This document shows, piece by piece, positions 1 through 22,773 of a DNA stretch of 34,902 bases (position 1 is the stretch's first letter; each line of letters opens with the position of its first letter). The DNA is from Calditrichota bacterium (lineage in GTDB: Bacteria > Zhuqueibacterota > Zhuqueibacteria > Residuimicrobiales > Krinioviventaceae), in assembly GCA_003818595.1 (NCBI GenBank), contig RPQV01000003.1, positions 1 through 34,902 on the forward strand, written 5' to 3'. The notes below the pieces were generated by a model, which was not told where the DNA came from, searched no databases, and saw only the letters and a program-made list of their open reading frames with translations. Made by a program: the position numbers and the translations under genes.

Positions 1-716
1 AATTCCCAGGCGTCTGTTGCATAATATACCTTCACATCTTTGTAATTGCCGGCTTCATCAGGAGAAATGTCCACAGAACCAAGCAAATCGATTCCGGAAA
101 AGGACATTCGACTGCCATAATTGGACAAATTCATGCCGATGCGGAGTCCATTCTCGTTCTCCCCGGTCACCGAAAAGAAGGGAGTTTGAATCATCACCCC
201 GAGATCCAGCGCCAGCGCGTTGGCGCTGGTGTGCCAAATGGTTGAACGAATATATTTCACCGAGGCGCCGAATCCAAACCACTGCGCCAGTTTTCTTGCA
301 TAAGATAAAGAGACCGCATAGTCTCCGGCGTTAAAATATTCACCGGTTCCCTGCTGCATATCAACCGTTGTCACCTCCATTTCGCCATAATTGACGCCGA
401 TAAATCCGATGCCGATGGTTCCAATACGCGGCAAGACAAGCGCTGCCCCCGAGAAATAGGTGCTGATATCCACAATCCAGGGCTGAAATGTGAACATCAC
501 CTGATTCATTTCCATGAAGGACAAACCGGCCGGATTCCAGTAGATGGAAGAGACATCCTGGGCCAAACTCACATACGCATCGCCGACTCCGCTGGCCGCC
601 GGTCCATAGCCGATGCCCAAGAACTCGGCCGTCGTGGTGCCCACCCGTATCGGCGATTGCGTTCTGACGGCTGTTGAAAGGAGCACCAATATGAACAAAA
701 CACTATATATTTTCAT
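1..716 (-). CDS. PorV/PorQ-family outer-membrane beta-barrel protein (T9SS-associated); C-terminal part lies beyond the left window edge
   Basis: Missing from the ORF track because no stop lies inside the window. ATG at 716-714 follows GGGAG with a 7-nt spacer. I checked every in-frame triplet down to nt 3 and found no stop. Hand translation: MKIYSVLFILVLLSTAVRTQSPIRVGTTTAEFLGIGYGPAASGVGDAYVSLAQDVSSIYWNPAGLSFME... This is a signal peptide followed by the AxFLxIGxGxxAxGxGDAY ... IYWNPAGL N-terminal signature I associate with PorV/PorQ barrels. It starts 12 nt after the stop of the upstream gene. Confidence 0.7.
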   Translation of the reverse strand, partial: MKIYSVLFILVLLSTAVRTQSPIRVGTTTAEFLGIGYGPAASGVGDAYVSLAQDVSSIYWNPAGLSFMEMNQVMFTFQPWIVDISTYFSGAALVLPRIGTIGIGFIGVNYGEMEVTTVDMQQGTGEYFNAGDYAVSLSYARKLAQWFGFGASVKYIRSTIWHTSANALALDLGVMIQTPFFSVTGENENGLRIGMNLSNYGSRMSFSGIDLLGSVDISPDEAGNYKDVKVYYATDAWE

Positions 717-728
717 CGCTTTTCTCCC

Positions 729-3700
729 TTATTTAATCACCGCAAACTTGCCGGTTTTTTCTTTTCCCGTTGACCATGACTTGATATGATAAAGATAAAC
801 ACCGGCCGCAATTTCCAAATCCTCTTTGGTCAATAAATCCCAATAGGCCATTCCATTATCCTGAAAATTATCCACCTCGATGATGTCGATCAAATAACCG
901 CTCATGGTGAATATTTTGATGGTGCATTGCGACGGAATATGGGTGAACATGATCCGTCGCCGCTGATTGAGTTGATTGTTACGGACAGCGGGTTCCAACG
1001 TATTGGTGACAACATAGGGATTGGGCACCACTTTGATTTTATCCATATCCTCATCAGCCATTGGACCTTCAGAGATAGAATAATGAGGTACTTGGAAACG
1101 GAGCGTATCCGTCAAGGTGAACGGTGTCACGCATGAAACACGATACACTGAGCCCGGGGAAGGCAATTCACCTTCCAATGAACCGAGAAAATTAATACTG
1201 AACAGAGAGTATTGCCAGACTTTTCTGGCTCGTGCTGTATCCGTGTCGAGATAGGCGGCAAATATTTCGTCCTCCGCCATATCAAATTGGCTGTTGCCGT
1301 TCATGTCAATAGCTACGAGATCGAGCTTGAGAAAATCACCCTGATCGTCAAGATGAAGTTTATCTTCGACATAAAAAGGAAAAGACTGGCCGAGGAGATA
1401 TTGACCGACTTTGAGAGAAACGCCGGTGCCGGTATTTACGCGGCTGCGCTGATCGAGCCGTGAGGTGTAAAGCTCACTTTCATCAGTGAAAATGAGATCA
1501 AAAATATAGGGAAACGCCTGAAGGTTCTCCTTATAGACGGTTATATTCATATTGCCGCCGCCGGTGAACCAGCCGCTGTTGAGTGAATCCCAATAGGCTA
1601 ATCCCGTTTCTCCCAACGGTATGGTGAATGACGCCTGCAGACCATCAAAAATATCGCTTTCGATCGTCATATCCGTTGCCAATAATTTCCAGGTGATCAG
1701 ATCGCCATAATTGGGACCTGCGGTGGCATAAGTGACAATATGATTCTTGATAAATTTGCTTGTGTTTTCATAAAAAAGCAGCGAATCTTCGGTTTCATCA
1801 TAGATACGATAACCACTATTGACAAAATAGTGTCCCCACAGCGTTTGCTCCGGCTTTTTGCCGAACGTTTTCACGGTGTCTTCGTCAAATACCACTTTAT
1901 AGATGTGATTTTGTTTCAACGCTGTGGGATCGACAATGGACAGCGAAAAGAGCTCGGCCGGACCACTGATCAGGGCGTTGTCGTGCAGTGTCTGTACATT
2001 GGTTGCTGAAAATCCGGCGGCAACCGGCTTGGGCGTTGCAACCTGAACGTTCGGGCTCATGAAGATGATGCTTTCTGATTCATCAACCACCAGGGTGGGG
2101 ACATTTTCAGCCGGTGCGATGTTTTTCTCCCGCATGCCGTGGTCATACGCAGCCAAATAATAGTAATAGGTTTTGCCATTCTGCACATCCGTATCGATAT
2201 AATAATGTTGAACGCCGGTGTTGTTGCCGAGAAAGACGCCTTCACCCTCGACCAGCGCAAAATCAGTAAAGCCGAAATAGTCATTTTTGAGATCCCACTG
2301 CTGAATTGGTTTAAGTCCTGCCGGATTTCCGAATCCATCCCGCAGTTGCAGAGCATCTTCGAAAAAGCGTTCGGTGGAACGATAGAGTCTATAACCTTCA
2401 AAATCATTTGCTCCGCCGGCTAACGGTTCCCGGGTCAAGCGATCGGCGCGATCATCCCACGTCAGAATGACTTTGCCGTCCGCGGCAACGGCTTTAAGGG
2501 TGGGCATCTCCGGCGGCCGCGCGAAACGATAATCGCTCTCATAAATGATCTGCACCACTTTTTTGCGATCAAAGATCAGCGGCGCCCGTTTTTCCTTGGT
2601 CAATATTGCCAAATCTTCAAATGCCGCAATCGTCGCCATGGAAATGCGCTCGGTGCGGCCTTTATCCAATCGGAACGGACCCGTTCCAAAAGCCTGGTAA
2701 AGGTTATTGGGCTTGTCGTAATAATCATCCAGTATTTTATCGGTCAGTACATTGTAGCATTCTTTATCATGTGCCGGCGACGGAGGACCACCTTGAGGAT
2801 GCTGAAAAAGATGAAAAGACTGCAATCCCAACATGTCGGATTCAGAAACATCGGTCAAACCAAAGTTGGGTTCAGCACCCAGTCCTTCCAGCATATCAGG
2901 ACGATGATTGCACTCGGTTCCATCGGCATCGGGACTGTTGTAATTCAAATCTCCGGGTGCAACTCCGTCCAATCCGATGTCATCACCGGGATTCTCACCC
3001 GAATCATAAATGCCGTTGCCGTTTTTATCATCACCATCTTTCCAATCCTGATCTTCATCAGCATCCCAATGCGTTTTCAAATCGTCGACGCTTTTGACAT
3101 CGTAAAAACTGAGAAACTTGTTCATATCAGTGATGCCGTCTGCCGGGCCGATCAGCGTCGCCGCAAAGTTGTCGCGTTTTTCATCGGTTATACCGTCATC
3201 GTCATTATCCTTCAAATCATTTTGAACGCCGGGACTCTCGAGAAATGCAAATCCAAGGGTTCCCGCCGGATAGTTAAAGTTTCCAGTTCCATTGGTGTCC
3301 CAGCAAAACGACAGGTCAAGCTCATCATTGAAACTGCCGACATCATCTTCGCCGTCGCTGGTTTTGATGTAATGACCAATCCCCAAATCCATCATATATC
3401 CAAAAACCATACTGGGAAGATCATACTCGGAAATATTGGCAATGTTGTATTCCCAAAAAACAGCATCTCGCGTCTGCGGATTATCCCATTGATATCCTCT
3501 GACTTCGACCCGCAAACCGAGACCTCCCCAAGGCAATCCCTTCTGGGTGGTGACCGTGGGTCTTTTGTCGCCGATTTTCACATTTTTGACGATTTGTCCT
3601 GATCCGTCATACGTTCTTCGCGGAAAATATTTGATTTCCTTTTCCGGCTGCAGCCACTCCTGATCCTGAGCATCGTTCAGCACAAAATAAGTTTCCAGTT

Positions 3701-4271
3701 GGGCATACATCACCCCGCGCCCAAAACGGCCATTCCATTCTCCCGGCCATTTCAGTTGATCTCCTCGGCTTGGCCAGCCCATTGGCGGCCAACTATTCGG
3801 ATCCACGCTCATTGCCGGGCTTTCAGCCAGTTCATTAAAATAACCGAATACCGGAGTCAACGCCCAGCTGATTGTACCATCAGGCGCCGTCTCGGATCGG
3901 CTGTCCGCTTCTACGATCAACAGCGAGTCCAGATCAATTCTCGATGAGATCATCATTTCATCTGTCACCGGAATTGAATCGTTCTCGACAAAAACCTTGC
4001 CGCCGAGAATGACCGACAGACCATCATACATATCGATGCCTTGTTGGGAATTTCTCGGCCATTTTGAACCGTCCAAATAACCCCAATGTCCGGTAAATCC
4101 ACCGGAATTCACATAGAGTTGCCATCGGTTGCCATCCATGAGCGTCTCCCGCTCCGCAGCCGGATCTCCCGCCGGATCATCAGGTCCTTCATATAGGCGG
4201 CTTTGACCATTCAAAGACAGAGATACGACTGCAAGGGAAATAATAAAGAATCGTATAATAAATGATTTCAT
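729..4271 (-). CDS. Large secreted protein (~1180 aa) with Asp-rich calcium-binding-like repeats, an FN3-like segment and a T9SS C-terminal sorting domain; function unknown
   Basis: The ORF track gives 729..4289, whose start codon is TTG. I prefer the ATG at 4271 (AGGAG 9 nt upstream), which gives MKSFIIRFFIISLAVVSLSLNGQ, a signal peptide with no lipobox Cys. Asp-rich runs include DNDDDGITDE and DADEDQDWKDGDDKNGNGIYDSGENPGDDIGLDG. An FN3-like stretch is present (GKVILTWDD...FEGYRLYRS...KTYYYYLAAYD). The tail KVVPNPY...IKIFTMSGYLI...AAGVYLYHIKS...GKFAVIK fits the T9SS CTD pattern. I saw no HExxH or other catalytic motif. Confidence 0.8.
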   Translation of the reverse strand: MKSFIIRFFIISLAVVSLSLNGQSRLYEGPDDPAGDPAAERETLMDGNRWQLYVNSGGFTGHWGYLDGSKWPRNSQQGIDMYDGLSVILGGKVFVENDSIPVTDEMMISSRIDLDSLLIVEADSRSETAPDGTISWALTPVFGYFNELAESPAMSVDPNSWPPMGWPSRGDQLKWPGEWNGRFGRGVMYAQLETYFVLNDAQDQEWLQPEKEIKYFPRRTYDGSGQIVKNVKIGDKRPTVTTQKGLPWGGLGLRVEVRGYQWDNPQTRDAVFWEYNIANISEYDLPSMVFGYMMDLGIGHYIKTSDGEDDVGSFNDELDLSFCWDTNGTGNFNYPAGTLGFAFLESPGVQNDLKDNDDDGITDEKRDNFAATLIGPADGITDMNKFLSFYDVKSVDDLKTHWDADEDQDWKDGDDKNGNGIYDSGENPGDDIGLDGVAPGDLNYNSPDADGTECNHRPDMLEGLGAEPNFGLTDVSESDMLGLQSFHLFQHPQGGPPSPAHDKECYNVLTDKILDDYYDKPNNLYQAFGTGPFRLDKGRTERISMATIAAFEDLAILTKEKRAPLIFDRKKVVQIIYESDYRFARPPEMPTLKAVAADGKVILTWDDRADRLTREPLAGGANDFEGYRLYRSTERFFEDALQLRDGFGNPAGLKPIQQWDLKNDYFGFTDFALVEGEGVFLGNNTGVQHYYIDTDVQNGKTYYYYLAAYDHGMREKNIAPAENVPTLVVDESESIIFMSPNVQVATPKPVAAGFSATNVQTLHDNALISGPAELFSLSIVDPTALKQNHIYKVVFDEDTVKTFGKKPEQTLWGHYFVNSGYRIYDETEDSLLFYENTSKFIKNHIVTYATAGPNYGDLITWKLLATDMTIESDIFDGLQASFTIPLGETGLAYWDSLNSGWFTGGGNMNITVYKENLQAFPYIFDLIFTDESELYTSRLDQRSRVNTGTGVSLKVGQYLLGQSFPFYVEDKLHLDDQGDFLKLDLVAIDMNGNSQFDMAEDEIFAAYLDTDTARARKVWQYSLFSINFLGSLEGELPSPGSVYRVSCVTPFTLTDTLRFQVPHYSISEGPMADEDMDKIKVVPNPYVVTNTLEPAVRNNQLNQRRRIMFTHIPSQCTIKIFTMSGYLIDIIEVDNFQDNGMAYWDLLTKEDLEIAAGVYLYHIKSWSTGKEKTGKFAVIK

Positions 4272-4292
4272 GCCCTTCACTCCTATCAAAAA

Positions 4293-7004
4293 TTAAAAAG
4301 AAATGTTAAGACCACATTTTACCATTCTGGGTGAACTGTACATGGCCGGATTTTGATAAACGTCTTCATAGGTGGAAAACGAACTTCGATGGCCCAGTAT
4401 ATCAGTTTCCTGGACGACGGCGGTATAGGCGCGGCCGGTTTGTGAGTTAACCCATTCTTCATTAAGCCGGTCAAAAAGATTATAGACCAGCAGCGTCAGC
4501 CTGAGGTTCATACCGTAAATTTTGGCAATCTGGTAATAAGCATTAATATCGACACTGAATTGTAATGGACGATATTCGTTATTGGGAAACAAATTGATGG
4601 CCGATAAAGGGCTTTGAGGAATGGGATTCCACGTATATGGTTGTCCGGAATCAATATAACACAGCAGCGTACTTCCCCATCGTGGAGTGTTATAACCACC
4701 ATAGAGATTCAAAGTATGCCGTTGATCCCAGTTCATCGGAATCAGTTTGTTCACCGGATCCATTTCAGATCCGGCTCGCGTGAAGGACGAATATGGATTA
4801 TCGGCTATACCACGAGTGAATGCGAGAGTATAGTTAACCCCGGCCGAGATGAAATCCTGCCTAAATTCGTATTTTAATTCCAATCCTCTGGCATTGCCAT
4901 ATTCTTTATTGGTGAAAACACCATACCTGCGCTGATTATAGGTTGTAAAAACAGAGGCGGTCACCAAATCATAAATGTCCTTATACCAAACGGCAACCTC
5001 AAGGCTCATGCTGCGGCTCAACTGCTGATAAAGACCTACTTCGTATTGAATTGTTTTTTGTGGTTGAAGCTGGGCATTTCCAGTGGTCGTGGAAAAATCG
5101 GATGCGGCGATGCGAAAGGTGGAATTTTGATAATAATAGTTCAAGGGAGGCAGCTGCAAAAAATGGCCATAGGCAAATCGCAAAAGGGCCGATCCCCCCA
5201 GATCATAAGACAGGCCCAACCGCGGAGACACTTGATATTTGGAATCTGCCTCAGGATAGATGCTCATCCTTTCGCTCTCAACATAATAGTCCTGATTCGC
5301 GGGATTGCGATAATTGGAAGGATAGATTGTCTGCGGATCAAAATAGTCAAAGCGAACCCCAACATTGACGACCATCATATTGAATTCCATCTTGTCCTGT
5401 ATAAAATAGGCGCCATGAATGGGCTCAACCTGATATTCATCCGTGTGAATGCTTTCATTTGAATGAATAATCGGGCGATAATTGGGATAAATTCTTTTAC
5501 CATCCGGAGTTTCTATGTATTCATTTTCAATTCCTGATCCTTCGAAAGCATTGCGAATGGTATAGGCTTTTTGCGACAGTTCAATTTGATTGATATCAAA
5601 GCCTGTTTTTATGCTGTGTTGTTTGCTCACCTGCCAGGTTAAATCAACTTTTCCCGACAATTTTTTTTCGGTGCGATTCGAATGTGATTTATCCTGGCCG
5701 CCGGTATAAAACCAGGGTCCGTTATTACGATGATATTCATCATGAACATAGGCCGCTTCTAAAGGGTTTTCATAAAGATAATAGCCGGTCCAATAATCGG
5801 AATAGGATATTTTGGCATCGATAAAAGCCGCTTTTGAGAGGAGATAATTGATATTGAGAATGGCCAGTTGCGTTTCATTATGCCATGCAGGAACACCCGT
5901 CGGATTGAATCGATAAGCATGGCTGTAGCTTTTCCCTTCACCACTGTTCCACGTGCCTGATAAGGCCAATTTCAGATTATTGGTGGGTTTGAAAGTCAAT
6001 TTGGCAAAGGCGGAAATATTTTCATTCCAGCTCATATCAGTGATGGAACTATCACCGGAACTTTCGACGTGCCAGTTTTCAACATCTCTGGGGGTGAAAT
6101 CGCTGTAATCTGTGACATTAAAATAGCGTATACCATTAAGATAACCATCATCTTGATTCATCCGGACATTGACCACATAAAAGAGTTTACTTTTCCACAA
6201 TGGACCGACAATGGACGCTTTTAAATCGCTGATCCGATTGAATTCGCCCGCTTTCAGTCCGATATAAACATTATCATGAGGAGTCAGATAATTTCCATAT
6301 TGCAGAGATATGTTCCCTTTAATTGAGTTTCCACCCTCTTTTGTCACCACGTTGACCACGCCGCTCATGGCATCGCCATATTCTGCGTTAAAGGTTCCCG
6401 TGATCACCTCTACATCCTCAACAACCTCCGGATTGACGTTCGAGGTGGTCTGTTCATGGGAAAAGGCATCCGTAACGCTGACGCCGTCGATGAGATAGGT
6501 CACTTCATTGCTTCGTCCGCCGCGAAAATGGTTGCCGACGACGCCCGGCTGCATGGCCACAACCTCGTATACGCTTTCTGCAGGCAGAATTGAAATGTCT
6601 TCAGACGAAATGTTGCGTATCGAATTGGTCTGATCCTTTTTAATACTCATTTTTTCCGCCTGAACCGTTACCACCTCTCCTTCGATGACCTCGGGCTTGA
6701 GGCTGAAATCAATTCCAATAGTTCGATTGACAAATACGCGAACATTTTCGACGCGCATGGGAGCGTATCCCATCATTCTCGCTTCAATGGCATAGTTGCC
6801 GGGGATGATGTTGATGATATAGTAATCTCCCTGTAAATCAGTAGCAGCGCCTTGATGCGTTCCCACAAGTATGATATTGGCGCCGACCAGGGCTTCACCA
6901 GAGTCAGCATCTTTGACAGTACCTGATATTTTTCCAGTTGTTTGCGCGGACAGCGCAGAATAATAAATGATTATCATGATGAACAGCTGGTACCACCTTT
7001 TCAT
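4293..7004 (-). CDS. TonB-dependent outer-membrane receptor, SusC-like (CarboxypepD_reg domain + plug + barrel)
   Basis: The ORF track gives 4293..7019. The second Met (track position 7004) follows GGAGGAAAGG and gives the signal peptide MKRWYQLFIMIIIYYSALSAQ. GKISGTVKDADSGEALVGANIILVG is a carboxypeptidase-regulatory-like domain. A plug-like region follows (ISILPAESVYEVVAMQPGVV...RGGRSNEVTYLIDGV). The long barrel ends in ...GLNISF with a terminal Phe. Confidence 0.85.
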   Translation of the reverse strand: MKRWYQLFIMIIIYYSALSAQTTGKISGTVKDADSGEALVGANIILVGTHQGAATDLQGDYYIINIIPGNYAIEARMMGYAPMRVENVRVFVNRTIGIDFSLKPEVIEGEVVTVQAEKMSIKKDQTNSIRNISSEDISILPAESVYEVVAMQPGVVGNHFRGGRSNEVTYLIDGVSVTDAFSHEQTTSNVNPEVVEDVEVITGTFNAEYGDAMSGVVNVVTKEGGNSIKGNISLQYGNYLTPHDNVYIGLKAGEFNRISDLKASIVGPLWKSKLFYVVNVRMNQDDGYLNGIRYFNVTDYSDFTPRDVENWHVESSGDSSITDMSWNENISAFAKLTFKPTNNLKLALSGTWNSGEGKSYSHAYRFNPTGVPAWHNETQLAILNINYLLSKAAFIDAKISYSDYWTGYYLYENPLEAAYVHDEYHRNNGPWFYTGGQDKSHSNRTEKKLSGKVDLTWQVSKQHSIKTGFDINQIELSQKAYTIRNAFEGSGIENEYIETPDGKRIYPNYRPIIHSNESIHTDEYQVEPIHGAYFIQDKMEFNMMVVNVGVRFDYFDPQTIYPSNYRNPANQDYYVESERMSIYPEADSKYQVSPRLGLSYDLGGSALLRFAYGHFLQLPPLNYYYQNSTFRIAASDFSTTTGNAQLQPQKTIQYEVGLYQQLSRSMSLEVAVWYKDIYDLVTASVFTTYNQRRYGVFTNKEYGNARGLELKYEFRQDFISAGVNYTLAFTRGIADNPYSSFTRAGSEMDPVNKLIPMNWDQRHTLNLYGGYNTPRWGSTLLCYIDSGQPYTWNPIPQSPLSAINLFPNNEYRPLQFSVDINAYYQIAKIYGMNLRLTLLVYNLFDRLNEEWVNSQTGRAYTAVVQETDILGHRSSFSTYEDVYQNPAMYSSPRMVKCGLNISF

Positions 7005-7032
7005 CTGCCTTTCCTCCATTTTTATTTAATAT

Positions 7033-8856
7033 TTAATTCACAACCATTTTTTCCAGTTCGCCGATCATTATGCTATTCGGATGACTCTTTTTAAATTGAT
7101 TGAGAAATTCTTGCGCCTTTATAAAATTTTGCAATTTGATATTGACGGTGATGAGATCGATGACGAGTTTTTCATGATGAGGTGTTCTTTGTACGGCACG
7201 ATCAAATAGTTTTGCCGCATTTTCATAATCCCCTTTATCCATCAAAACTTCACCGGCCAATCGCGCGGCCTGGGGAATGAACTCTTGTTGTAGGCTTTTA
7301 TTCAAATGATCAAGTGCTTGTTCTTGATTTCCGCATCTTAAAAATGCCTTTGCCCGCCGGAGGTGAGTATACGCGTCAATAGGCGTCAGAAAAGGAATGA
7401 CCTCCAATTCTTTTGCAGCCTGTTCATTCCGATCAATTGAATCATAATATTCAGCCAGGCGAAGATGTGCCGCTGCAACATCCATCTCTTCGCGGATGAC
7501 CTGAAGTGCTAATATTTCTTCAGCAATACGCGGCTGAAAATTGCTGAGGAAAGAACGCTCTTTTTGGCTAAAAGGCCAACCTGACTTGATCTGCTTGATC
7601 ATCACATCGGCCAAAGTATTGTCGAGGGAGGTAAACGGCCATTCTTTTTCATACAACTCTGCCGGTAGAGATGACGCCGTCTGCCAGTTCTGCTGAATCA
7701 ATTCGACATCAACCATCGTCCGATAAAAGCCGTCCGCCATGAGAAAATATCCCTTTTTGTTGGGATGGAGATGGTCCGCCATGAGCTTGTTTCCAATCAC
7801 TTTATTTTCAGATTCATCTTCGAAATATTTGATCATGGGAACAACAAACGCATCATGCTGTTTCGCTGTTTGATGGATGATATCATTGAATTCCTCGGTC
7901 GCCCGAAAGCGAATTTGATCCTGATCTTTTGCAGCATAAAATGAGATTTGAGCCTGATCAATTTTTCCTGACTGCAAAAAAGATTGTGCCTGATCATACA
8001 AGTCTCGTGCAGCACTATGGTTGATATAATTTTCATCAAAGGGAGGCTGATCACCAACATTACTGACCAATTCGCTGATCAGTACCGGGACATGCCTTTG
8101 CTGGAAGGTGGAGAGAATCGCATTCAAGTTTGCCTTGAATGAGGCTGCTGTTTTCCGATAGATACGGCTATTCAAAGGAATCATCTGTTTGGTCGAAATT
8201 CTTTCCATCAAAGTTCCATCGGAAATGACAGAAAGTTTATTTCGGTAAAACAAATGATTGAACACATTTTTATAAAGCTGAAAAGTTCTTGTTTTGTTGA
8301 CCCATAATAAAGTCAAAACCAGCGGACGAGCCAGTCCTCCGGCTTCAAAAGAAGCAGCCCCCAGCGCTCCATAGAACTCGTTATGGCCGCAGTATATCAT
8401 GACGGCATCCGGCTCTTGAGCCATTATTTCATCAACAAAATTCAAAAGTGCAAAGCTGTTGATCGCCGTCAAAGAGGTGTTGATGACTTCTATGGTTCGA
8501 TCGGGAAAAGTATCCTGCAGGCGCGTCTGCAGAATCCTGGAGAACATCAGCAGATTGCCGTATGGAAATCCCAATGCGGTCGACTCGCCGAGGACAAAAA
8601 TTCGAAAACCATCGGCAGGTTTTTTCTGGTAAAATAAATCATTCGCAGGTGTGGGAATCGTCGTTTGGCGGCCAAAAAATCTTTTTCCAATTTGCGGATT
8701 TACTTTTTTAAAATCCGCAAAAGGCGCTCCGGCATTGATAAAGAGTTCCGGATAATCCCCATAGTCAATGATCTTTAAAACCCCCTCGCATGCGGCAAAA
8801 AAGAAAAAAGGCATTGGAATTATTAAAAACCAAAAAAGCACTCTTTTCCAATGCAC
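7033..8856 (-). CDS. Membrane-anchored SGNH/GDSL-family hydrolase with C-terminal TPR-like repeats
   Basis: GTG start at 8856 with GGAG 7 nt upstream. N-terminal TM helix VLFWFLIIPMPFFFFAA. SGNH blocks: FRIFVLGESTALG (block I Ser), MIYCGHNEF (block III) and ADHLHPNKKGY (block V DxxH). The C-terminal third has TPR-like helices (AEYYDSIDRNEQAAKELE, RRAKAFLRCGNQEQALDHLNKSL, MDKGDYENAAKLFDRAV). Confidence 0.75.
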   Translation of the reverse strand: MHWKRVLFWFLIIPMPFFFFAACEGVLKIIDYGDYPELFINAGAPFADFKKVNPQIGKRFFGRQTTIPTPANDLFYQKKPADGFRIFVLGESTALGFPYGNLLMFSRILQTRLQDTFPDRTIEVINTSLTAINSFALLNFVDEIMAQEPDAVMIYCGHNEFYGALGAASFEAGGLARPLVLTLLWVNKTRTFQLYKNVFNHLFYRNKLSVISDGTLMERISTKQMIPLNSRIYRKTAASFKANLNAILSTFQQRHVPVLISELVSNVGDQPPFDENYINHSAARDLYDQAQSFLQSGKIDQAQISFYAAKDQDQIRFRATEEFNDIIHQTAKQHDAFVVPMIKYFEDESENKVIGNKLMADHLHPNKKGYFLMADGFYRTMVDVELIQQNWQTASSLPAELYEKEWPFTSLDNTLADVMIKQIKSGWPFSQKERSFLSNFQPRIAEEILALQVIREEMDVAAAHLRLAEYYDSIDRNEQAAKELEVIPFLTPIDAYTHLRRAKAFLRCGNQEQALDHLNKSLQQEFIPQAARLAGEVLMDKGDYENAAKLFDRAVQRTPHHEKLVIDLITVNIKLQNFIKAQEFLNQFKKSHPNSIMIGELEKMVVN

Positions 8857-8990
8857 CCTTGTTCTCCAAAAAGTTAGAATTGATCAATGACAAAGATGAT
8901 TATTTGCTTGTTCAAAGCAACATAATTCTTTTTTTCACGTTAATCAACTTTATTATAAAAAATTTTTATCGATCTGTTTTGTCGAGAGAT

Positions 8991-9060
8991 GATTTTTATT
9001 GATTTTTTTATTATATATATATTATTAAATATATTAAGTATAAAGATATAGTATTAGTAG
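8991..9060. other. Extreme AT-rich tract (7 G/C in 70 nt); candidate DNA-unwinding element or promoter/UP region
   Basis: Direct count over gatttttattgatttttttattatatatatattattaaatatattaagtataaagatatagtattagtag. It lies in the 470-bp non-coding gap between sxtJ-like (stop 9328) and the SGNH gene (start 8856). Confidence 0.4.
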
Positions 9061-9142
9061 ATCGTGTGAATATGTTGATAAATGAATATTAAAAGAAAAA
9101 AAAAGGACAACTCGTTTAATTACAATGAAAATGAATCATTCT

Positions 9143-9166
9143 TTATCCACACAAGGATGTGAATAA
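9143..9166. promoter_or_regulatory. 24-bp imperfect palindrome, copy 1: TTATCCACA-CAAGGA-TGTGAATAA (two head-to-head DnaA-box-like 9-mers)
   Basis: Read directly. The left arm is a perfect DnaA-box consensus TTATCCACA. The reverse complement of the right arm is TTATTCACA, which fits TTATNCACA. Confidence 0.5.
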
Positions 9167-9277
9167 AGAGTTGATAAAGACAGGATTATGATATAAAGTG
9201 AATAGATAATGTGATAACACAGCCGGCAAGAAAGAAATCCACATGATATTGACAACTTTTCCCCTGTTAATCATGAC

Positions 9278-9301
9278 TTGTACACAAACGGATGTGAACA
9301 A
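9278..9301. promoter_or_regulatory. 24-bp imperfect palindrome, copy 2: TTGTACACA-AACGGA-TGTGAACAA
   Basis: Read directly. It has the same 9+6+9 architecture as copy 1 and 19 of 24 identical positions. Each arm is one mismatch from TTATNCACA. Confidence 0.5.
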
Positions 9302-9327
9302 CTTATCGGGAATGAAGAAAAAGTAAA

Positions 9328-9765
9328 TCAATACAACTTTTCGTAACTCGAGTTATCTTTAGGAAAGTCAGTGCGGTTTATCCAATAACTCGAACTGTAT
9401 TTTTCAATTTTGCGGTTCAGTGGATCCTTGGAAATAACCTTAAAGATCAGAGCGATGGGAGTAAAAAGAAGAAAGAAAACGACCGTCAATAAAACTCTGG
9501 ACATCAACCAACCCAATGTGAGAGCCAGAAACATCCATACTTTATAAATGGGTTTGAGAAAAGTGGGGAACAACACTCCGAAAATCAGGAAAAATAGAGA
9601 TGCCCCGATAAACCAGAAAGCGCGTTCTCTCACATCGCCAAAGAAATAGATTCCGGCGGCAAGCAGGAATAAAGCCGTCGCCATGACCCAGGCAAATGAA
9701 CGAAGAGAACGCCGATCCAATGTGAGAACAGACATTCCCGCATGAATTTCCTTAATCAAGTTCAT
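9328..9765 (-). CDS. SxtJ-family small membrane protein
   Basis: 145 aa with 3-4 hydrophobic helices. The tail KVISKDPLNRKIEKYSSSYWINR resembles the conserved KDPL...SYW motif I recall for SxtJ. It overlaps the carbamoyltransferase stop by 14 nt, the usual carbamoyltransferase-SxtJ pairing. Confidence 0.65.
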   Translation of the reverse strand: MNLIKEIHAGMSVLTLDRRSLRSFAWVMATALFLLAAGIYFFGDVRERAFWFIGASLFFLIFGVLFPTFLKPIYKVWMFLALTLGWLMSRVLLTVVFFLLFTPIALIFKVISKDPLNRKIEKYSSSYWINRTDFPKDNSSYEKLY

Positions 9766-11566
9766 ATGTTTTTTTCCAGTCCTGTTTTTCGATCAATGGA
9801 GGTTGATCCTTCTTATTAACAATAAAATTTCCGATGACCAAATAATCCATTTCGGTTCTCATGAAACAACGATAAGCATCTTCCGGAGAACCAACAATGG
9901 GTTCTCCGCGCACATTGAAAGAGGTATTGATAATGACCGGACAACCGGTTTTTTGATGGAAGCACTTGAGCAGATCATAATAACGACCATGCTCTGCTGA
10001 GACCGTCTGCAGCCGAGCCGAATAATCAATATGGGTGATGGCCGGTACGTCAGAGCGGATGACGTTCAGCTTATCGATGCCCCAAAGCTTTTGCTGTTCA
10101 TCCGTCATCGGTTTACAATGATCTTTATGAACTTGGGCTACCAACAGCATGTAGGGACTCGGAACATCAATTTCAAAATAATCTGCTGCATATTCTTCCA
10201 ATACTGAAGGAGCAAACGGACGAAAACTCTCGCGAAATTTAATTTTAAGGTTCATCCGCGACTGCATCGATGGCGAACGGGCATCGCCGAGAATCGAGCG
10301 ACTTCCCAAGGCGCGCGGTCCAAATTCCATTCTTCCTTGAAACCAGGCAACCACATTTTCTTCGGCAATCAACTGTGCCGTACGATCAATCAGTTCTTCA
10401 TCAGCATAGTGGACATAGGGAAGATGATGCTGATCTAAAAATTGCTTGATCTCTTGATCACTATAGGCAGGACCGATAAGAGATGCTTTTTGCAGATCAT
10501 GAATATCATCCACCTGACGGGCATTATTTTTGATTTGATACCAGCAGAACAATGCAGCCCCCAGCGCGCCTCCGGCATCTCCCGCAGCGGGTTGAATCCA
10601 AATGTTGTCAAACGGACCTTCGCGCAGGATTCGTCCATTGGCGACGCAGTTCAGGGCAACACCGCCTGCCAGACATAGGTTTTTTTGACCGGTCTGCTGA
10701 TGGACAAAGCGGGCACAACGGAGCATGATTTCTTCAGTGACCTCCTGTATGGAGCGGGCAATGTCCATTTCTTTCTGAGTCAGCAAAGTTTCAGGTTTTC
10801 TCGGCGGCCCGCCGAAAAGTCGATGAAAGCGGGAATTGGTCATGGTGAGACCAGCCCCATAATTAAAATAGTCCATGTTGAGCTTGAAAGATCCGTCCTC
10901 TTTCAAGTCAACAAGATGATCATAGATGGTCTGCACATATTTGGGTTCACCGTAAGGCGCCAATCCCATGACTTTGTATTCGCCGGAATTCACTCTGAAT
11001 CCCGTATAATACGTAAACGCCGAATACAACAGTCCCAGAGAATGGGGAAAATGAATTTCCGCTTCGATGGACAGGCGGTTGTCCTGTCCAATTCCATAGG
11101 ATGTGGTGGTCCACTCACCAACGCCGTCCGTGGTCAGAAAAGCGGCCTGTTGAAATGGAGAAGGGAAGAACGCTGATGCCGCATGGGATTCGTGATGTTC
11201 GGGAAAAACAAGGTCGCCATCGAAACCGCTTTCTTTGCGGATCAGATCGGGAATCCAAAGCTTTTTCTTGAGCCAGAGTGGTAATGATAATAGAAAAGAG
11301 GACAAACCCGATGGCGCGTAGCTGAGATAGGTTTCGAGGATGCGTTCAAATTTGATAAAGGGTTTATCATAAAAAGCGATCACATCAACTTGATCAATCG
11401 TTATTTGCGCCTGTCGTAGGCAGGCCTGGATCGCCAGCCGCGGAAAGCTCTGATCGTGTTTGATGCGCGAAAAACGCTCTTCCTGCGCTGCGGCTGCAAT
11501 TTCGCCGTCGCGCACAATGCAGGCGGCGCTGTCATGATAAAAGCAGGATATTCCAAGGATGATCAT
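9752..11566 (-). CDS. Carbamoyltransferase (NodU/CmcH family)
   Basis: 604 aa. The N-terminus MIILGISCFYHDSAACIVRDGEIAAAAQEERFSRIKHD is the canonical ASKHA-like start of this family. HHESHAASAF, the C-terminal INTSFNVRGEPIV motif and the length all fit. ATGA overlap with the upstream thioesterase stop. Confidence 0.9.
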   Translation of the reverse strand: MIILGISCFYHDSAACIVRDGEIAAAAQEERFSRIKHDQSFPRLAIQACLRQAQITIDQVDVIAFYDKPFIKFERILETYLSYAPSGLSSFLLSLPLWLKKKLWIPDLIRKESGFDGDLVFPEHHESHAASAFFPSPFQQAAFLTTDGVGEWTTTSYGIGQDNRLSIEAEIHFPHSLGLLYSAFTYYTGFRVNSGEYKVMGLAPYGEPKYVQTIYDHLVDLKEDGSFKLNMDYFNYGAGLTMTNSRFHRLFGGPPRKPETLLTQKEMDIARSIQEVTEEIMLRCARFVHQQTGQKNLCLAGGVALNCVANGRILREGPFDNIWIQPAAGDAGGALGAALFCWYQIKNNARQVDDIHDLQKASLIGPAYSDQEIKQFLDQHHLPYVHYADEELIDRTAQLIAEENVVAWFQGRMEFGPRALGSRSILGDARSPSMQSRMNLKIKFRESFRPFAPSVLEEYAADYFEIDVPSPYMLLVAQVHKDHCKPMTDEQQKLWGIDKLNVIRSDVPAITHIDYSARLQTVSAEHGRYYDLLKCFHQKTGCPVIINTSFNVRGEPIVGSPEDAYRCFMRTEMDYLVIGNFIVNKKDQPPLIEKQDWKKTYELD

Positions 11567-14203: not shown

Positions 14204-16645
14204 TCAACCCAAGATGGCTTTCACGATCACACGATCACCGCCATTTTCCAACGGAACAATATTCCCGACCACTATTTTTCCATCCACCCGCAGCGAATGC
14301 ACGCCTTTATTGATCCCTTTTGGATTTTGAATCGTGATCTCATACTCTTTACCGCGAAACTTGCGAATGACCTTGTACTCTTTCCACGCTTTGGGAATGC
14401 AGGGATCAATGACTAAACCGGTCAGTCCCGGTCGAACTCCCAGAATATATTGAGAAATGGAGACAAACGACCAGGAGGCCGTGCCGGTCAACCAGCTGTT
14501 TTTGGCCTCACCAGGAGTCGGGGCGTCTTTGCCCGCAGTCATTTGACTGTAGACATAGGGCTCCGCACGATACACTTCAATCTGGCTCTCTTTTTGCGAA
14601 GGACAAATACTCATATAATATTCAAAGGCCTGATCGCCGTGTCCCAACAAGGTTTCCGCAATTTGAATCCAGGTGTTGTTATGAGTGAAAATGCCGGCGT
14701 TTTCCTTGTACCCGGGAGGATAAGAACTGATTTCACCCAGATGCAGATGATAAGTTTGATACGCCGGTTGCTGCAGAACAATGCCGTTGGGAGTTGCCAG
14801 ATATTGATGAACACTGCGCAATGCCTGTTCCGCGTAACCATTGTCAAGACCGATCGCTCCCAAAATACACCAGGCCTGACTCTCGATAAAAATACGGCCT
14901 TCATCGTTTGTCGTGGAACCAATTTTTCTGCCCAAAGCATCAAAAGCGCGCAGGAACCATTGACCATCCCAGCCGTGCTGCAGCACGATTTGGCGCATCT
15001 CCGCTGCATGAGCGGACATTAACGACGCCTGCTGAGCATTTCCCAAATGGTTAAAAATAACTTCCAGTTCATCACAAGCCGCGCAAAACAGCCCGGCAAT
15101 CATCACCGATTCAGCTATGACGCCATGCTCGGCATCTCCGGCCAATTGAAAGCTTTCGCCCGGAGTGTCTGAAAAACAGTTTAAATTCAGACAGTCATTC
15201 CAGTCAGCATGACCAATCAACGGCAACTGGTGCGGTCCGCGATGCTGCAGAATATAATCGATGGAAATCATCAGGTGATCGAGCAGCGTCGCTGTTTTCT
15301 CCTTCAGATCGGCATAGCCGATTTTCTCGTCGAGTATGGTTGCGTCGCCCGTTTCCTTGAGATAGGCGGCCGTCGAAAGAATCAGCCACAGCGGATCATC
15401 ATTAAAGCCGCTGCCGGCATTGGCGTTGCCGATTTTTGTCAGCGGTTGATATTGGTGATAACACGTCCCGTCAGAAAGTTGTGTTGCCGCAATGTCCAAA
15501 ATCCGCTCTCTCGCTCTTTCAGGAATGATATGAACAAATCCCAGAACGTCCTGATTGCTGTCCCGATATCCCATGCCGCGACCAATTCCCGACTCGAAGA
15601 GAGAGGCCGAGCGCGACATGTTGAATGTCACCATGCATTGATACTGGTTCCACATGTTGACCATGCGGTTCACATGCTGATTTTCAGTGTTCACCTTATA
15701 GCCGGACAACAGCGAACGCCAATAGCTTTTCAATTCCTCCAGCTGCTGATCGATCAGCTTGGGCGATGCATATTTTTCAATCACACGGTAATAGGGTTCC
15801 TTGTTGATGACATGAGGTTGAATGAATTTCTTTTCCTTGGGATTCTCCGCATAGCCGAGAAGAAAATGGAGACGCTTATGTTCCCCGGGTTGAAGAGTCA
15901 GATCGATTTGATGGCCGGCGATGGGCGCCCAGCCGTAGGCGATGCTGTTGCTGCAGGCGCCGGCTTTGACCGCAGCGGGTTCATGCAGACCGTTATGCAG
16001 GCCGACGAATTGATCTCGACTGGTGTCAAATCCGGAAATGTCCTCACTGGCAGCAAAGTAGGCAAAATGGTTCCGCCGTTCACGATATTCTGTTTTATGA
16101 AAAATGGTGTTCTTTTCGACTTCCACCTGACCTATGGAAAAATTTCTCTGAAAATTGGTCTGATCATCCCAGGAATCCCAGAGACACCATTCAATGAAAC
16201 TCCAGAGGCGAATGGTTTTTGTCTTGTTGGAAAAATTTCGGCAATGCACATCCCAAATTTCCACATGTTCGGACAACGGAATAAAGTAATTGACTTCAAC
16301 GCCAAGTCCATTCTTATGTCCGCGAATGGTTGTCATTCCGGCACCGTGCCGACATTCATAATAATCGAGCGGGGTTTTCATCGGTTTCCACATCGGATTC
16401 CAAATTGTGTCGCCGTCCTTGATATAGAGATAGCGCCCATTCGCATCCATGGGGACATTGTTGTAGCGATAACGCGTCAAACGGCGCATGCGGGCGTCTT
16501 TATAAAAGCAATACCCTCCCGCGGTATTGGAAATGATGCCGAAAAATTCATGGTTTCCCAGGTAATTAATCCACGGAAGTGGAGTGTCCGGTCGTGTTAT
16601 GACATATTGTCCGTTATCATCATCAAAATGGCCAAAAGAATTCAT
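14204..16645 (-). CDS. GH94 glycoside phosphorylase (cellobiose/chitobiose phosphorylase type)
   Basis: 813 aa. MNSFGHFDDDNGQYVITRPDTPLPWINYLG...GGYCFYKDARMRRLTRYRYNNVPMDANGRYLY closely parallels the N-terminus of characterised cellobiose phosphorylases, and the length is typical (~810 aa). No signal peptide, so it is cytoplasmic. Confidence 0.9.
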   Translation of the reverse strand: MNSFGHFDDDNGQYVITRPDTPLPWINYLGNHEFFGIISNTAGGYCFYKDARMRRLTRYRYNNVPMDANGRYLYIKDGDTIWNPMWKPMKTPLDYYECRHGAGMTTIRGHKNGLGVEVNYFIPLSEHVEIWDVHCRNFSNKTKTIRLWSFIEWCLWDSWDDQTNFQRNFSIGQVEVEKNTIFHKTEYRERRNHFAYFAASEDISGFDTSRDQFVGLHNGLHEPAAVKAGACSNSIAYGWAPIAGHQIDLTLQPGEHKRLHFLLGYAENPKEKKFIQPHVINKEPYYRVIEKYASPKLIDQQLEELKSYWRSLLSGYKVNTENQHVNRMVNMWNQYQCMVTFNMSRSASLFESGIGRGMGYRDSNQDVLGFVHIIPERARERILDIAATQLSDGTCYHQYQPLTKIGNANAGSGFNDDPLWLILSTAAYLKETGDATILDEKIGYADLKEKTATLLDHLMISIDYILQHRGPHQLPLIGHADWNDCLNLNCFSDTPGESFQLAGDAEHGVIAESVMIAGLFCAACDELEVIFNHLGNAQQASLMSAHAAEMRQIVLQHGWDGQWFLRAFDALGRKIGSTTNDEGRIFIESQAWCILGAIGLDNGYAEQALRSVHQYLATPNGIVLQQPAYQTYHLHLGEISSYPPGYKENAGIFTHNNTWIQIAETLLGHGDQAFEYYMSICPSQKESQIEVYRAEPYVYSQMTAGKDAPTPGEAKNSWLTGTASWSFVSISQYILGVRPGLTGLVIDPCIPKAWKEYKVIRKFRGKEYEITIQNPKGINKGVHSLRVDGKIVVGNIVPLENGGDRVIVKAILG

Positions 16646-16692
16646 GGTGTGTCCTTTACAGATTGATCATTTTCTGTCAATGAATTGAAAAA

Positions 16693-16723
16693 TATAAAAA
16701 AAATATCCTAAATGCAATTCAGG
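16693..16723 (-). terminator. Candidate weak rho-independent terminator after the polyprenol-kinase-like gene
   Basis: The minus strand reads CCTGAA-TTGCA-TTTAGG, a 6-bp stem with one G-U pair, followed by ATATTTTTTTTATATTTTT. The stem is AT-rich. Confidence 0.3.
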
Positions 16724-16732
16724 CTTGTTAAA

Positions 16733-17437
16733 TTATGATAATAAAAGATATAAAGCCCCGGCTACGATCAACGGGACGGTCAGATTATCACTTCCTTTTG
16801 GGGAAAAAGCTTCGGCAATGGCCGCCGCTGCAGCAGCCGCCAGCGAACTGAAAACACGAAGCGAGAGGGATAGCTCAACGCCGTCCTGATTGAGAGAAGA
16901 ACTGAGTACCAGCGTCATGGTGATAAAAATGGCGATAAAACTGAACAAGAACATCGAGAGGGTTCCTTCAAGCGTACGTGAGCTCGAAAAATGACGAACT
17001 CGGCGTTTACCGTAATAAAAGCCGAATAAAGCTGCCGCGGCATCTCCCAGCGTCATCGCCATGACGGATGCCAAAGCAATAATCAAGTGAATGAGCGATC
17101 CATTTGTGCGCCAGAAAAGAAGGAACAGCAGCGTTATCGAAACAGCAAAGTATACGGTTCCGGGAGTGGCATCCTCTTCATCCATTTTCGCAAACGACCT
17201 TTTTTTGTAGAAATAATAATTTAGAACAATAAATGTGGCGAATGGAATGATGCCGATATACCAATGATCAAAGATGAAAACAATGGCCCAAACCCACATC
17301 CCGGCCGCCATGTGAATGAGTTTCCTGGTGAAAAAGGATTGCCAGTTCAATTTTTCTCCCAACTTTTCGATGGAGAATAGGAGAGAAAAGGCATACCCAT
17401 AAGATAATATTAATCCGATTGTGTCCGCTTTAGACAT
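16733..17437 (-). CDS. Polytopic membrane protein of the polyprenol/phytol kinase - cytidylyltransferase superfamily
   Basis: 234 aa with ~7 TM helices. RKLIHMAAG and GDAAAALFGFYYGKRR resemble the conserved motifs of CTP-dependent dolichol/phytol kinases and CdsA-like enzymes. Confidence 0.55.
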   Translation of the reverse strand: MSKADTIGLILSYGYAFSLLFSIEKLGEKLNWQSFFTRKLIHMAAGMWVWAIVFIFDHWYIGIIPFATFIVLNYYFYKKRSFAKMDEEDATPGTVYFAVSITLLFLLFWRTNGSLIHLIIALASVMAMTLGDAAAALFGFYYGKRRVRHFSSSRTLEGTLSMFLFSFIAIFITMTLVLSSSLNQDGVELSLSLRVFSSLAAAAAAAIAEAFSPKGSDNLTVPLIVAGALYLLLS

Positions 17438-17470
17438 AGTTCCTCAATGGTATTGGTTTATGGGCTTTAT

Positions 17471-18235
17471 TTATGCCAGGATTGAATAGCCGCCGTCAAC
17501 AACAATGGTTTGTCCCTGGATTTGTTCAGCAAATGGGCTGCACAAATATAAAACGACATTGGCAACATCTTCCGGCGTCGTCAACCGCCCCGTCGGCGTT
17601 CTTTTACTCGACTCTCCCAATAGGGAATCACGGTTGGGGAAATGTTTCAAGGCGTCTGTATCCACGACTCCGGCAGAAACGGCATTGACGCGAATTTTAT
17701 GAGGCGCCAACTCGAGCGCCAAGTGTCGAATTAACGATTCCAAAGCGGCTTTGGATGCACCCACCGCCGAATAGTTGGGAATCGCACGAACAGAACCCAG
17801 ACTCGAAACAGCAATGATGACCCCGCCATGGGTCATCAGGGGGACTGATTCCTGAGTTAAGGGCAACAAAGTGCCGGCATTGATGTTCATCGTCCATTGC
17901 CAGTGTCGCGGCGTCAATTCAAGAGCCGGTTTTAAAACCCCTGAGGCGGCATTGCTGATCAAAATATCCAACCGACCAAACGTGTTTTTGACCTGATTGA
18001 CCATGTCATGAATATTTTCTGCCTCGCCGACATTCGCGCGGATGGCGAGCGCTTTCACGCCATGGCTTTCAATCAAACTGACCGTTTCATCTGCCGCCGT
18101 CCTTTGACGGAGATAATTGATCGCCACATTGACGCCGGCTTCCGCCAAACGAATCGCGATGGCGCGGCCAATACCGCGTGATCCTCCGGTGATCAGTGCG
18201 GCTTTGCCGGTTAATGACAAACTTAAATCACTCAT
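17471..18235 (-). CDS. fabL: Enoyl-[acyl-carrier-protein] reductase FabL-type (SDR family)
   Basis: GKAALITGGSRGIGRAIA is the Rossmann motif. FGRLD..SNAASGVLKP...HWQWTMNINA...SSLGSVRAIPNYSAVGASKAALESLIRHLALELAP..IRVNAVSAGVVDTDALKHFPNRD tracks Bacillus FabL almost block for block, as far as I remember that sequence. Confidence 0.8.
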   Translation of the reverse strand: MSDLSLSLTGKAALITGGSRGIGRAIAIRLAEAGVNVAINYLRQRTAADETVSLIESHGVKALAIRANVGEAENIHDMVNQVKNTFGRLDILISNAASGVLKPALELTPRHWQWTMNINAGTLLPLTQESVPLMTHGGVIIAVSSLGSVRAIPNYSAVGASKAALESLIRHLALELAPHKIRVNAVSAGVVDTDALKHFPNRDSLLGESSKRTPTGRLTTPEDVANVVLYLCSPFAEQIQGQTIVVDGGYSILA

Positions 18236-18250
18236 CTTGATTACCCTTTT

Positions 18251-22770: not shown

Positions 22771-22773
22771 AGA

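Follow-up and report, generated by a model that had tools for sequence, protein, structure and literature searches.

SusC/SusD-based glycan uptake is regarded as a hallmark of the Bacteroidota, and polymer uptake in related SusD-poor phyla, which abound worldwide in sediments and the dark ocean, is poorly understood. The present analysis concerns a four-gene operon at the start of a 34,902-nucleotide (nt) stretch of DNA from a Calditrichota bacterium (contig RPQV01000003.1, positions 1 to 34,902; the whole stretch is referred to below as the window). In this operon a TonB-dependent receptor (TBDR), a secreted protein of about 1180 amino acids (aa), here called the giant, and a barrel of the PorV/PorQ family are encoded one after another. 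Among type IX secretion system (T9SS) genes, porU and porV are also neighbours. PorV binds type-A C-terminal domains (CTDs) and has a known role as a shuttle, and the CTDs of PorU and PorZ are retained on PorV and PorQ, respectively (PMC10202324). Type-B cargo is anchored by cognate PorP/SprF proteins encoded alongside it, and cognate PorV-like barrels have been suggested to shield CTDs from cleavage (PMC10202324).

An initial annotation, made from the sequence alone, proposed that the operon encodes a surface capture/import complex assembled through the T9SS, with the giant in the position of SusD beside a SusC-like TBDR, and with an SGNH-TPR esterase upstream. The four minus-strand open reading frames (ORFs) are closely packed in positions 1-8856:

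7033-8856, minus strand: SGNH/GDSL hydrolase-TPR gene (607 aa; Pfam Lipase_GDSL_2 and TPR).
4293-7019, minus strand: TBDR gene (ORF of 908 aa; likely true start ATG 7004).
729-4289, minus strand: gene of the giant, a secreted protein (ORF of 1186 aa when read from the first TTG; 1180 aa from the likely start, ATG 4271).
3-716, minus strand: PorV/PorQ-family barrel gene (N-terminal 238 aa of about 353; runs off the window start).

Conservation of the three-gene cassette

A scan of one genome per species returned 438 relatives of the giant, and 78 loci were fetched, in which six-frame ORFs were labelled using the window proteins. The order TBDR-giant-PorV-like was found strictly in 55/78 loci and the order TBDR-PorV-like-giant in 5/78; the trio is contiguous in 60/78, and the remaining loci are mostly cut by contig ends. 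This adjacency is far beyond chance. The relatives with a name come from KSB1/Zhuqueibacterota, Marinimicrobia, Calditrichota (among them the cultured Caldithrix abyssi) and Ignavibacteria (Melioribacter roseus, L047), and conservation of the gene neighbourhood, on which the initial annotation depended, therefore held across several phyla. The placing of the giant beside the TBDR, in the position of SusD, was likewise confirmed in the window and in its relatives. Independently called genes are separated by 9-29 nt between TBDR and giant and by 10-66 nt between giant and barrel. Several genomes carry two to three cassette loci each, and one locus (L010) consists of two cassettes back to back. 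Two distant family members taken from the profile search, of 1585 and 1096 aa, are likewise encoded within a TBDR/giant/PorV-like trio.

In 58 complete cassettes the mean pairwise identity is alike across the three proteins (0.52-0.56), and their divergence is correlated (r 0.87 for giant and TBDR, 0.68 for giant and barrel, 0.82 for TBDR and barrel). Full-text searches of the openly accessible literature gave no description of the trio, nor did the genome papers of M. roseus and C. abyssi. The cassette is a widespread unnamed module and is not peculiar to this window.

Some of the loci with the order TBDR-PorV-like-giant carry three to five tandem giants. Such sets of three to five giant paralogues beside a single TBDR and a single PorV-like gene were seen in L011, L019, L039 and L049; the L011 contig begins inside the giant array, and no TBDR is seen there. 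An unknown family of about 506 aa (c4) is encoded 3' of the PorV-like gene in 40 related loci (for example L018 14609-16183, L083 14640-16187 and L017 8712-10229). Its members have a lipoprotein-like signal, only a weak SurA_N_2 match and no NCBIfam match, and the orthogroup of the window (L004, L081) lacks the family. The c4 proteins may form a fourth component, for example as a chaperone or as a surface protein. As to the hosts, the giants of L003, L007, L019, L023 and others cluster with copies from KSB1, Zhuqueibacterota, Caldithrix or Marinimicrobia. These metagenome-assembled genomes (MAGs) bear titles at odds with this clustering ('uncultured Cytophagia', 'Lentisphaeria', 'Caldisericaceae', 'Deferribacteres'), and the labels look unreliable.

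The receptor and the barrel

The TBDR has a signal peptide, a CarboxypepD_reg N-terminal domain (PF13715/PF13620, residues 31-119), a TonB-box-like GEVVTVQAE, a plug (PF07715, residues 127-221) and a barrel (PF00593, residues 346-848), with the box lying between the N-terminal domain and the plug. This is the domain order of SusC. An NCBIfam scan at E<=0.01 gave 13 TBDR models and no match to TIGR04056 (SusC/RagA), and no SusC or RagA chains were among the matches of a PDB sequence search. The receptor is thus SusC-like in its domain order, as the initial annotation had it, and membership of the SusC/RagA family itself is ruled out by the last two results. No SusD-family lipoprotein is encoded directly 3' of the TBDR, the downstream protein being all-β and free of any SusD match in Pfam.

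The window fragment of the barrel matches the PorV/PorQ family model NF033709 with 166.7 bits (cut-off 90), in agreement with its first assignment, and full-length orthologues reach 186-198 bits. Scores stay below the equivalog cut-offs of PorV (NF033710, 79-89 bits; cut-off 250), PorQ (NF033711, 75-91 bits; cut-off 220) and PorV2 (NF052325, 38-62 bits; cut-off 325). The sole match in a PDB sequence search was Flavobacterium johnsoniae PorV (6h3i_F, E 1.2e-11). The barrel accordingly appears, by these comparisons, to be a separate subfamily of the PorV/PorQ family with one copy per cassette, distinct from housekeeping PorV. That it might be the lone housekeeping porV of its genome, lying next to the giant without conserved adjacency, is not borne out, because its scores fall below the equivalog level, each cassette includes a copy, there are several cassettes to a genome, and the adjacency is kept across phyla and in distant members of the family.

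The giant protein

The giant as a whole matches no Pfam family. When the protein was searched against Pfam in six pieces at E<=5, the sole match was CHU_C on the CTD (E 0.11), and the sole NCBIfam match was a weak one of the last 74 residues to the PorZ C-terminus (E 0.003). A PDB sequence search with the giant-family profile gave nothing at E<=1. A well-characterised family to which the giant could be assigned was therefore not found in Pfam, NCBIfam or the PDB. A word-indexed search returned more than 1665 homologues, which are annotated as hypothetical throughout. Of the best 120, nearly every one is full length (1140-1191 aa), at 46-70% identity, and two of the homologues (P0115, P0117) are named 'fibronectin type III domain-containing' by NCBI. 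Homologues with a named source come from candidate division KSB1, from Marinimicrobia and from Calditrichota, among them C. abyssi (Calab_3088), and the best named match is a KSB1 MAG protein with 67% identity. By this match the DNA most likely derives from a KSB1-like lineage within the Fibrobacterota-Chlorobiota-Bacteroidota (FCB) group rather than from classical Bacteroidota. An exhaustive profile search of 1.84 billion cluster representatives yielded 6554 matches at E<=1e-3, of which 3242 reach E<=1e-10 and 702 reach E<=1e-30; the longest are of about 1600 aa. The figure of 702 counts clusters at 50% identity and is a lower bound for the size of the family. The giant is thus the founder of a large uncharacterised family that has neither a Pfam nor an NCBIfam model.

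The giant has a signal peptide without Cys, and its first Cys is residue 329, which leaves no lipobox and agrees with its earlier description as a non-lipoprotein. An AlphaFold2 (AF2) model of the full-length protein is almost wholly β (predicted local distance difference test, pLDDT, 72; predicted TM-score, pTM, 0.65). Whole-model Foldseek searches gave low-TM multi-domain matches only, and residues 28-600 were re-modelled as a usable query (pLDDT 81.8, pTM 0.83). The following parts can be delimited:

2520-4154, minus strand: N-module, a predicted β-supersandwich, residues ~46-590 (AF2 and Foldseek).
2835-3227, minus strand: Asp-rich, calcium-loop-like insertion in the N-module, residues ~355-485 (composition and motifs).
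2070-2498, minus strand: fibronectin type III (FN3)-like β-sandwich, residues ~598-740 (AF2, Foldseek and NCBI names).
1065-2042, minus strand: variable β-sandwich region, residues ~750-1075 (column conservation and pairwise identity).
732-1037, minus strand: T9SS-type CTD, residues ~1085-1186 (hhalign, NCBIfam and Foldseek).

SusD/RagB membership was examined for the giant, and no SusD match was obtained in Pfam with the whole protein or its pieces. With the all-β AF2 model and the missing lipobox Cys, this rules out the giant as a SusD.

Foldseek matches of the N-module are the non-catalytic supersandwich domains of dextran dextrinase, of glycoside hydrolase (GH) families GH94 (phosphorylases), GH116 and GH149, of the phosphorylase module of cyclic glucan synthase and of copper amine oxidase, and the P1 domain of YidC. 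With TMq of about 0.3 and 6-9% identity, these matches are a resemblance of fold only. Residues 351-490 contain 21% Asp (9.6% overall), with the loops DNDDDGITD and DKNGNGIYD and an invariant DEDQDW. This insertion reads like calcium loops and has low pLDDT in both AF2 models. The FN3-like sandwich is indicated by the AF2 secondary structure and by FN3 chains among the Foldseek matches. Both the Asp-rich, calcium-like repeats and the FN3-like segment of the initial annotation were therefore recovered.

Conservation is unevenly distributed along the protein. Family-wide pairwise identity is 0.62 in the N-module (46-590), 0.62 in the FN3-like part (598-740), 0.37 in the variable region (750-1075) and 0.68 in the CTD (1085-1186), and column conservation is 0.36-0.52 in the variable part vs 0.63-0.84 in the N-terminal part. 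The variable β-sandwich region is thus a candidate for the part that determines ligand specificity. Among tandem giant paralogues divergence is usually greatest in the variable region, and the CTDs are 72-86% identical. Most paralogous pairs, in other words, differ mainly in the variable region and have near-identical CTDs, as if several heads used one anchor and one transporter.

The N-module also bears on whether the giant could be a surface enzyme of a new type. An endo-acting glycanase, or a lyase, whose catalytic domain is a calcium-dependent β-sandwich would be an example, and its role would be like that of SusG rather than SusD. Dozens of Asp, Glu, Trp and Arg residues are invariant in residues 30-590, the calcium-loop motifs lie in the same protein, and the fold relatives all come from carbohydrate-active enzymes. 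However, the matched domains are the non-catalytic supersandwich parts of these enzymes, and no catalytic (α/α)6 or TIM domain was found in the AF2 models of the giant or among its Foldseek matches. The N-module, moreover, is about 62% identical across loci with differing enzyme sets (β-glucan, fucoside/mannoside and nucleoside hydrolases), and variation sits in the C-terminal β-sandwich region instead. We regard an enzymatic role as quite improbable.

The C-terminal domain

By hhalign, a profile built from 89 giant C-termini aligns with one built from 76 CTDs that bear PF18962 and belong to neighbouring cargo proteins, at 90.8% probability (E 1.2e-6). When the full giant model was searched with Foldseek, PorZ (5m11) and PorU (6za2) ranked highest; these are the two proteins of the T9SS that are known for keeping their CTD. 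No other region of the giant is as conserved as the CTD (pairwise identity 0.66 vs 0.54 for the body). The giant probably ends in a divergent, strongly conserved T9SS-type domain, and T9SS export is predicted. The T9SS sorting domain of the initial annotation finds support in the profile-profile match and in the PorZ and PorU fold matches, and not in the standard models, whose thresholds it misses. The source genome does have T9SS cargo, since the window encodes an aminopeptidase N (M1; 18251-20281, minus strand) with a clear type-A sorting domain (TIGR04183, 35.9 bits).

These same matches raise the question of whether the giant and the barrel are T9SS machinery, namely an attachment pair of the PorU/PorV or PorZ/PorQ kind, and not part of a nutrient system. 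The giant has the length of PorU, a CTD and a PorV-family gene next to it, as in porU-porV, and to its fold matches is added the weak NCBIfam match to the PorZ C-terminus. Nevertheless, it matches neither the sortase model NF033707 nor the C25 peptidases and is almost all-β; it occurs in several copies and in tandem arrays per genome, and its link to a TBDR and to LacI-regulated genes of carbohydrate-active enzymes (CAZymes) is constant. A machinery role is thus very improbable, and a PorU-like sortase in particular is excluded by the missing NF033707 and C25 matches, the all-β fold, the many copies per genome and the catabolic context.

Genomic context of the cassette

In the commonest layout, the cassette is preceded by genes for LacI, a sodium:solute symporter (SSF) and an 850-aa protein with a carbohydrate-binding module of family 9 (CBM9) and a T9SS CTD. 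The PorV-like gene is followed by c4, GH16 with malectin and CTD, GH3, GH16, GH5 with CBM6, and a CotH/CTD protein. This layout carries the enzyme set of a β-glucan locus. The same type is present in C. abyssi, which grows on cellobiose, starch, xyloglucan and glucomannan (PMC5317091), with GH9, GH18, LacI, GH3, SSF and GH5 on its flanks; the locus of another relative contains an ABC sugar transporter, LacI, ROK, GH130 and a GH29 fucosidase. Overall, the flanks of the relatives hold LacI, SSF or ABC sugar transporters, GH16, GH3, GH5, GH30, GH29, GH130, CBM9 or CBM4_9 and many T9SS-CTD proteins. A census of a random sample of 88 same-strand proteins within three genes of the cassette counted PF18962 in 23, GH16 in 11, and GH3, SSF and CBM9 in 5 each, and also found GH30, GH5, GH92, fucosidases and esterases.

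A polysaccharide utilisation locus (PUL) in the strict sense, that is a susC/susD pair with CAZymes, is not present in the window, which has no susC or susD and, adjacent to the cassette, only the SGNH esterase. The relatives qualify as PULs in the looser sense of a transporter, a regulator and CAZymes, and the PUL-like setting of the initial annotation is strengthened by these flanks. In the window's orthogroup (L003, L081), a CBM4_9 protein of 827-1027 aa with a CTD follows the PorV-like gene, and beyond base 1 the window probably continues with the same CBM4_9-CTD arrangement. In L001, a Marinimicrobia MAG, three inosine-uridine nucleoside hydrolase genes lie 3' of the cassette (14698-19751); two of the products have PKD domains, and one of these also has a T9SS CTD. 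The module may therefore also serve non-glycan substrates.

The abundance of other T9SS-CTD proteins in these loci is what would be expected if the giant were T9SS cargo of the ordinary kind, either an adhesin or a glycan-binding protein of the surface, that loses its CTD by cleavage, with the barrel as its dedicated shuttle and the TBDR acting alone, outside any stable complex. PorV is a known shuttle (PMC10202324), the variable β-sandwich region suits a binding protein, and the CTD of the giant resembles type-A CTDs, which are normally cleaved. Yet other CTD cargo in the same loci is encoded without a private barrel, and the CTD of the giant is very highly conserved. Furthermore, the gene order with the TBDR is fixed even in distant members, and giant and TBDR diverge together (r 0.87). 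This explanation is unlikely.

Proposed capture and import module

The preferred reading is that the trio is a three-component outer-membrane capture/import module that replaces SusC/SusD in PUL-like loci of KSB1/Zhuqueibacterota, Marinimicrobia, Calditrichota and Ignavibacteria; we put its probability at roughly 0.55. The giant, with a signal peptide and no lipobox in its sequence, would be exported by Sec and would then cross the outer membrane via the T9SS using its CTD. The CTD would remain uncleaved on the neighbouring PorV/PorQ-family barrel, in the manner of the PorU CTD on PorV and the PorZ CTD on PorQ, and would so tether the giant to the cell surface. The N-module, a calcium-stabilised β-supersandwich, and the FN3-like part would form a constant scaffold for the TBDR. 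The variable β-sandwich region would bind the substrate, in most loci a glycan, and the TBDR would import the captured oligomers with TonB.

We infer the physical complex of the three proteins, the anchoring by the barrel, the secretion of the giant and the retention of its CTD. The surface capture/import complex first proposed thus gains from the conservation of the trio, its multiple copies and its PUL-like context, and in its assembly and barrel anchoring it is still a matter of prediction. Several observations weigh against the module. Two loci, L044 and L045, are the only ones in which sequence 3' of the giant is present and contains no PorV-like gene. The co-divergence of the trio can arise by co-inheritance alone, and the many invariant Asp, Glu and Trp residues of the N-module could mark an active site. 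The CTD of the giant falls below the thresholds of TIGR04183 and PF18962 in NCBIfam and Pfam. Its high conservation is suggestive only, given that the CTD is also better conserved than the body in cargo family c3 (the opposite holds in c6 and c12). Lastly, no glycoside hydrolase gene lies next to the operon within the window, where the nearest one, of GH94, is at a distance of 5.3 kb; the window does not extend to the downstream side.

A bolder form of the proposal is that the trio represents a third architecture of TonB-dependent 'utilisome', in which the lid or capture subunit is a T9SS-exported protein instead of a lipoprotein and is docked permanently by its uncleaved CTD on a private PorV-like barrel next to the transporter. 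On this view Marinimicrobia, Calditrichota, KSB1/Zhuqueibacterota and Ignavibacteria would import glycans chiefly by means of this device. We put this forward tentatively, as somewhat short of an even chance. If true, it would give the T9SS a structural role in nutrient uptake beyond enzyme secretion. The trio would provide SusD-poor phyla with a recognisable marker of uptake loci, as susCD does for PUL prediction, and would extend the principle of a cognate PorV-like barrel holding an uncleaved CTD from the T9SS machinery to nutrient transport. With 702 or more clusters (50% identity, E<=1e-30), it also defines a large protein family that neither Pfam nor NCBIfam models. Both C. abyssi and M. 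roseus are in culture, which makes the trio directly testable.

Operon structure and the SGNH-TPR esterase

The spacers between the longest ORFs are 13, 3 and 12 nt, as first reported, and become about 28, 21 and 12 nt when starts preceded by Shine-Dalgarno sequences are used. The internal Shine-Dalgarno sequences were found as GGAGG before ATG 7004, AGGAG before ATG 4271 and GGGAG before ATG 716. No terminator-like site lies inside any spacer of the four-gene set; across the region there are 12 such sites vs 9.6 in shuffles, which is not above the shuffles. The gene spacing and the absence of intergenic terminators fit co-transcription of the four genes. Upstream of the first gene lies one further feature:

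8857-9327, minus strand: candidate operon promoter region, an AT-rich gap of 470 nt.

The GC content is 0.365 in 9001-10000, and several sigma-70-like hexamer pairs occur on the minus strand at 9010-9298, within the gap; the region is a candidate promoter on account of its AT-richness and these hexamers.

The first gene encodes an SGNH/GDSL hydrolase, as indicated both by a Pfam match (PF13472, Lipase_GDSL_2, 39 bits, cut-off 32.9; residues 89-370) and by the catalytic blocks GESTALG (block I) and DHLH (block V). TPR_19/16/14/2 matches follow at residues 495-595, and the N-terminus is hydrophobic, like a membrane or lipoprotein signal. Of the fetched loci, only those of the closest relatives (L004, L081) carry this gene 5' of the TBDR. 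The esterase of the initial annotation is hence confirmed in its domains and is not part of the conserved module: it is an accessory gene, specific to the window's orthogroup and outside the core. In this orthogroup the enzyme would probably remove acyl groups from the substrate or from imported oligosaccharides.

Other genes of the window

A GH94 glycoside phosphorylase is encoded on the same strand upstream of the operon (14204-16645, minus strand; catalytic domain 512 bits, supersandwich 285 bits). GH94 is a cytoplasmic enzyme of β-glucoside catabolism, and its presence is a hint at a β-glucan or cellodextrin as the local substrate. Nearly the whole of a plus-strand ORF of 485 aa (15209-16666) lies opposite this gene; the ORF has no Pfam match and is probably spurious. 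Just upstream of the candidate operon promoter region, at 9328-11566 (minus strand), lie two overlapping genes, one for a carbamoyltransferase (Carbam_trans_N/C, NodU-like) and, across its end, one for a small SxtJ-like protein (PF19588). In its arrangement this pair resembles SxtI/SxtJ of saxitoxin clusters. At 21010-26193 (minus strand), an Omp85/BamA-like protein (586 aa) follows an 1139-aa protein without a family match, and the two are possibly a TamA/TamB-like pair. The rest of the window is housekeeping (YidC, MnmE, MnmG, FabL, Nudix, HAD and an RNA methyltransferase), and searches for tRNA genes and Rfam families gave no matches in the window.

Comparison with known systems

By function and position, the trio resembles SusC/SusD; by its anchoring logic, it resembles PorU-PorV, PorZ-PorQ and SprB-SprF. 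It shares with SusC/SusD (RagA/RagB) a TBDR with CarboxypepD_reg, TonB box and plug, a surface-partner gene directly next to it, and several paralogous copies per genome. Both are set among regulators, glycoside hydrolases, CBM proteins and inner-membrane sugar transporters. The partner, however, is an all-β protein of 1180 aa, whereas SusD is an α-helical TPR lipoprotein of about 550 aa, and it carries a T9SS-type CTD in place of a lipid anchor. The TBDR of the trio is outside the SusC/RagA family (no TIGR04056 match), a PorV-like barrel is a third obligatory gene, and the regulators of the trio loci are LacI and ROK, not hybrid two-component systems or extracytoplasmic function sigma/anti-sigma pairs. 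Melioribacter roseus also has a true susCDE operon (PMC3534657), and its trio cassette (L047) indicates that the two systems coexist in Ignavibacteria.

The PorU-PorV and PorZ-PorQ pairs likewise combine a large CTD-bearing surface protein with a 14-strand barrel of the PorV/PorQ family, and in these known pairs the CTD is retained on the barrel (PMC10202324). They differ from the trio in that the giant has no peptidase or propeller domains, its barrel is neither a PorV nor a PorQ equivalog, and the trio is multi-copy and tied to a TBDR and catabolic genes. In SprB-SprF, a type-B CTD cargo and a dedicated outer-membrane partner of the PorP/SprF kind are encoded side by side, and a partner of this type has been proposed to anchor uncleaved cargo on the surface (PMC10202324). 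In contrast, the barrel of the trio belongs to PorV/PorQ and not to PorP/SprF, the CTD of the giant is nearer to type A (CHU_C only at E 0.11), and the role proposed for the trio is nutrient uptake rather than gliding adhesion. A further parallel is BamG-BamH of the Bacteroidota β-barrel assembly machinery, in which a FadL/PorV-like 14-strand barrel holds a surface protein through extracellular loops and lies against a larger barrel (PMC12578637). There, the function, outer-membrane protein assembly, is unrelated, the partner is a lipoprotein, and neither a CTD nor a TBDR is involved.

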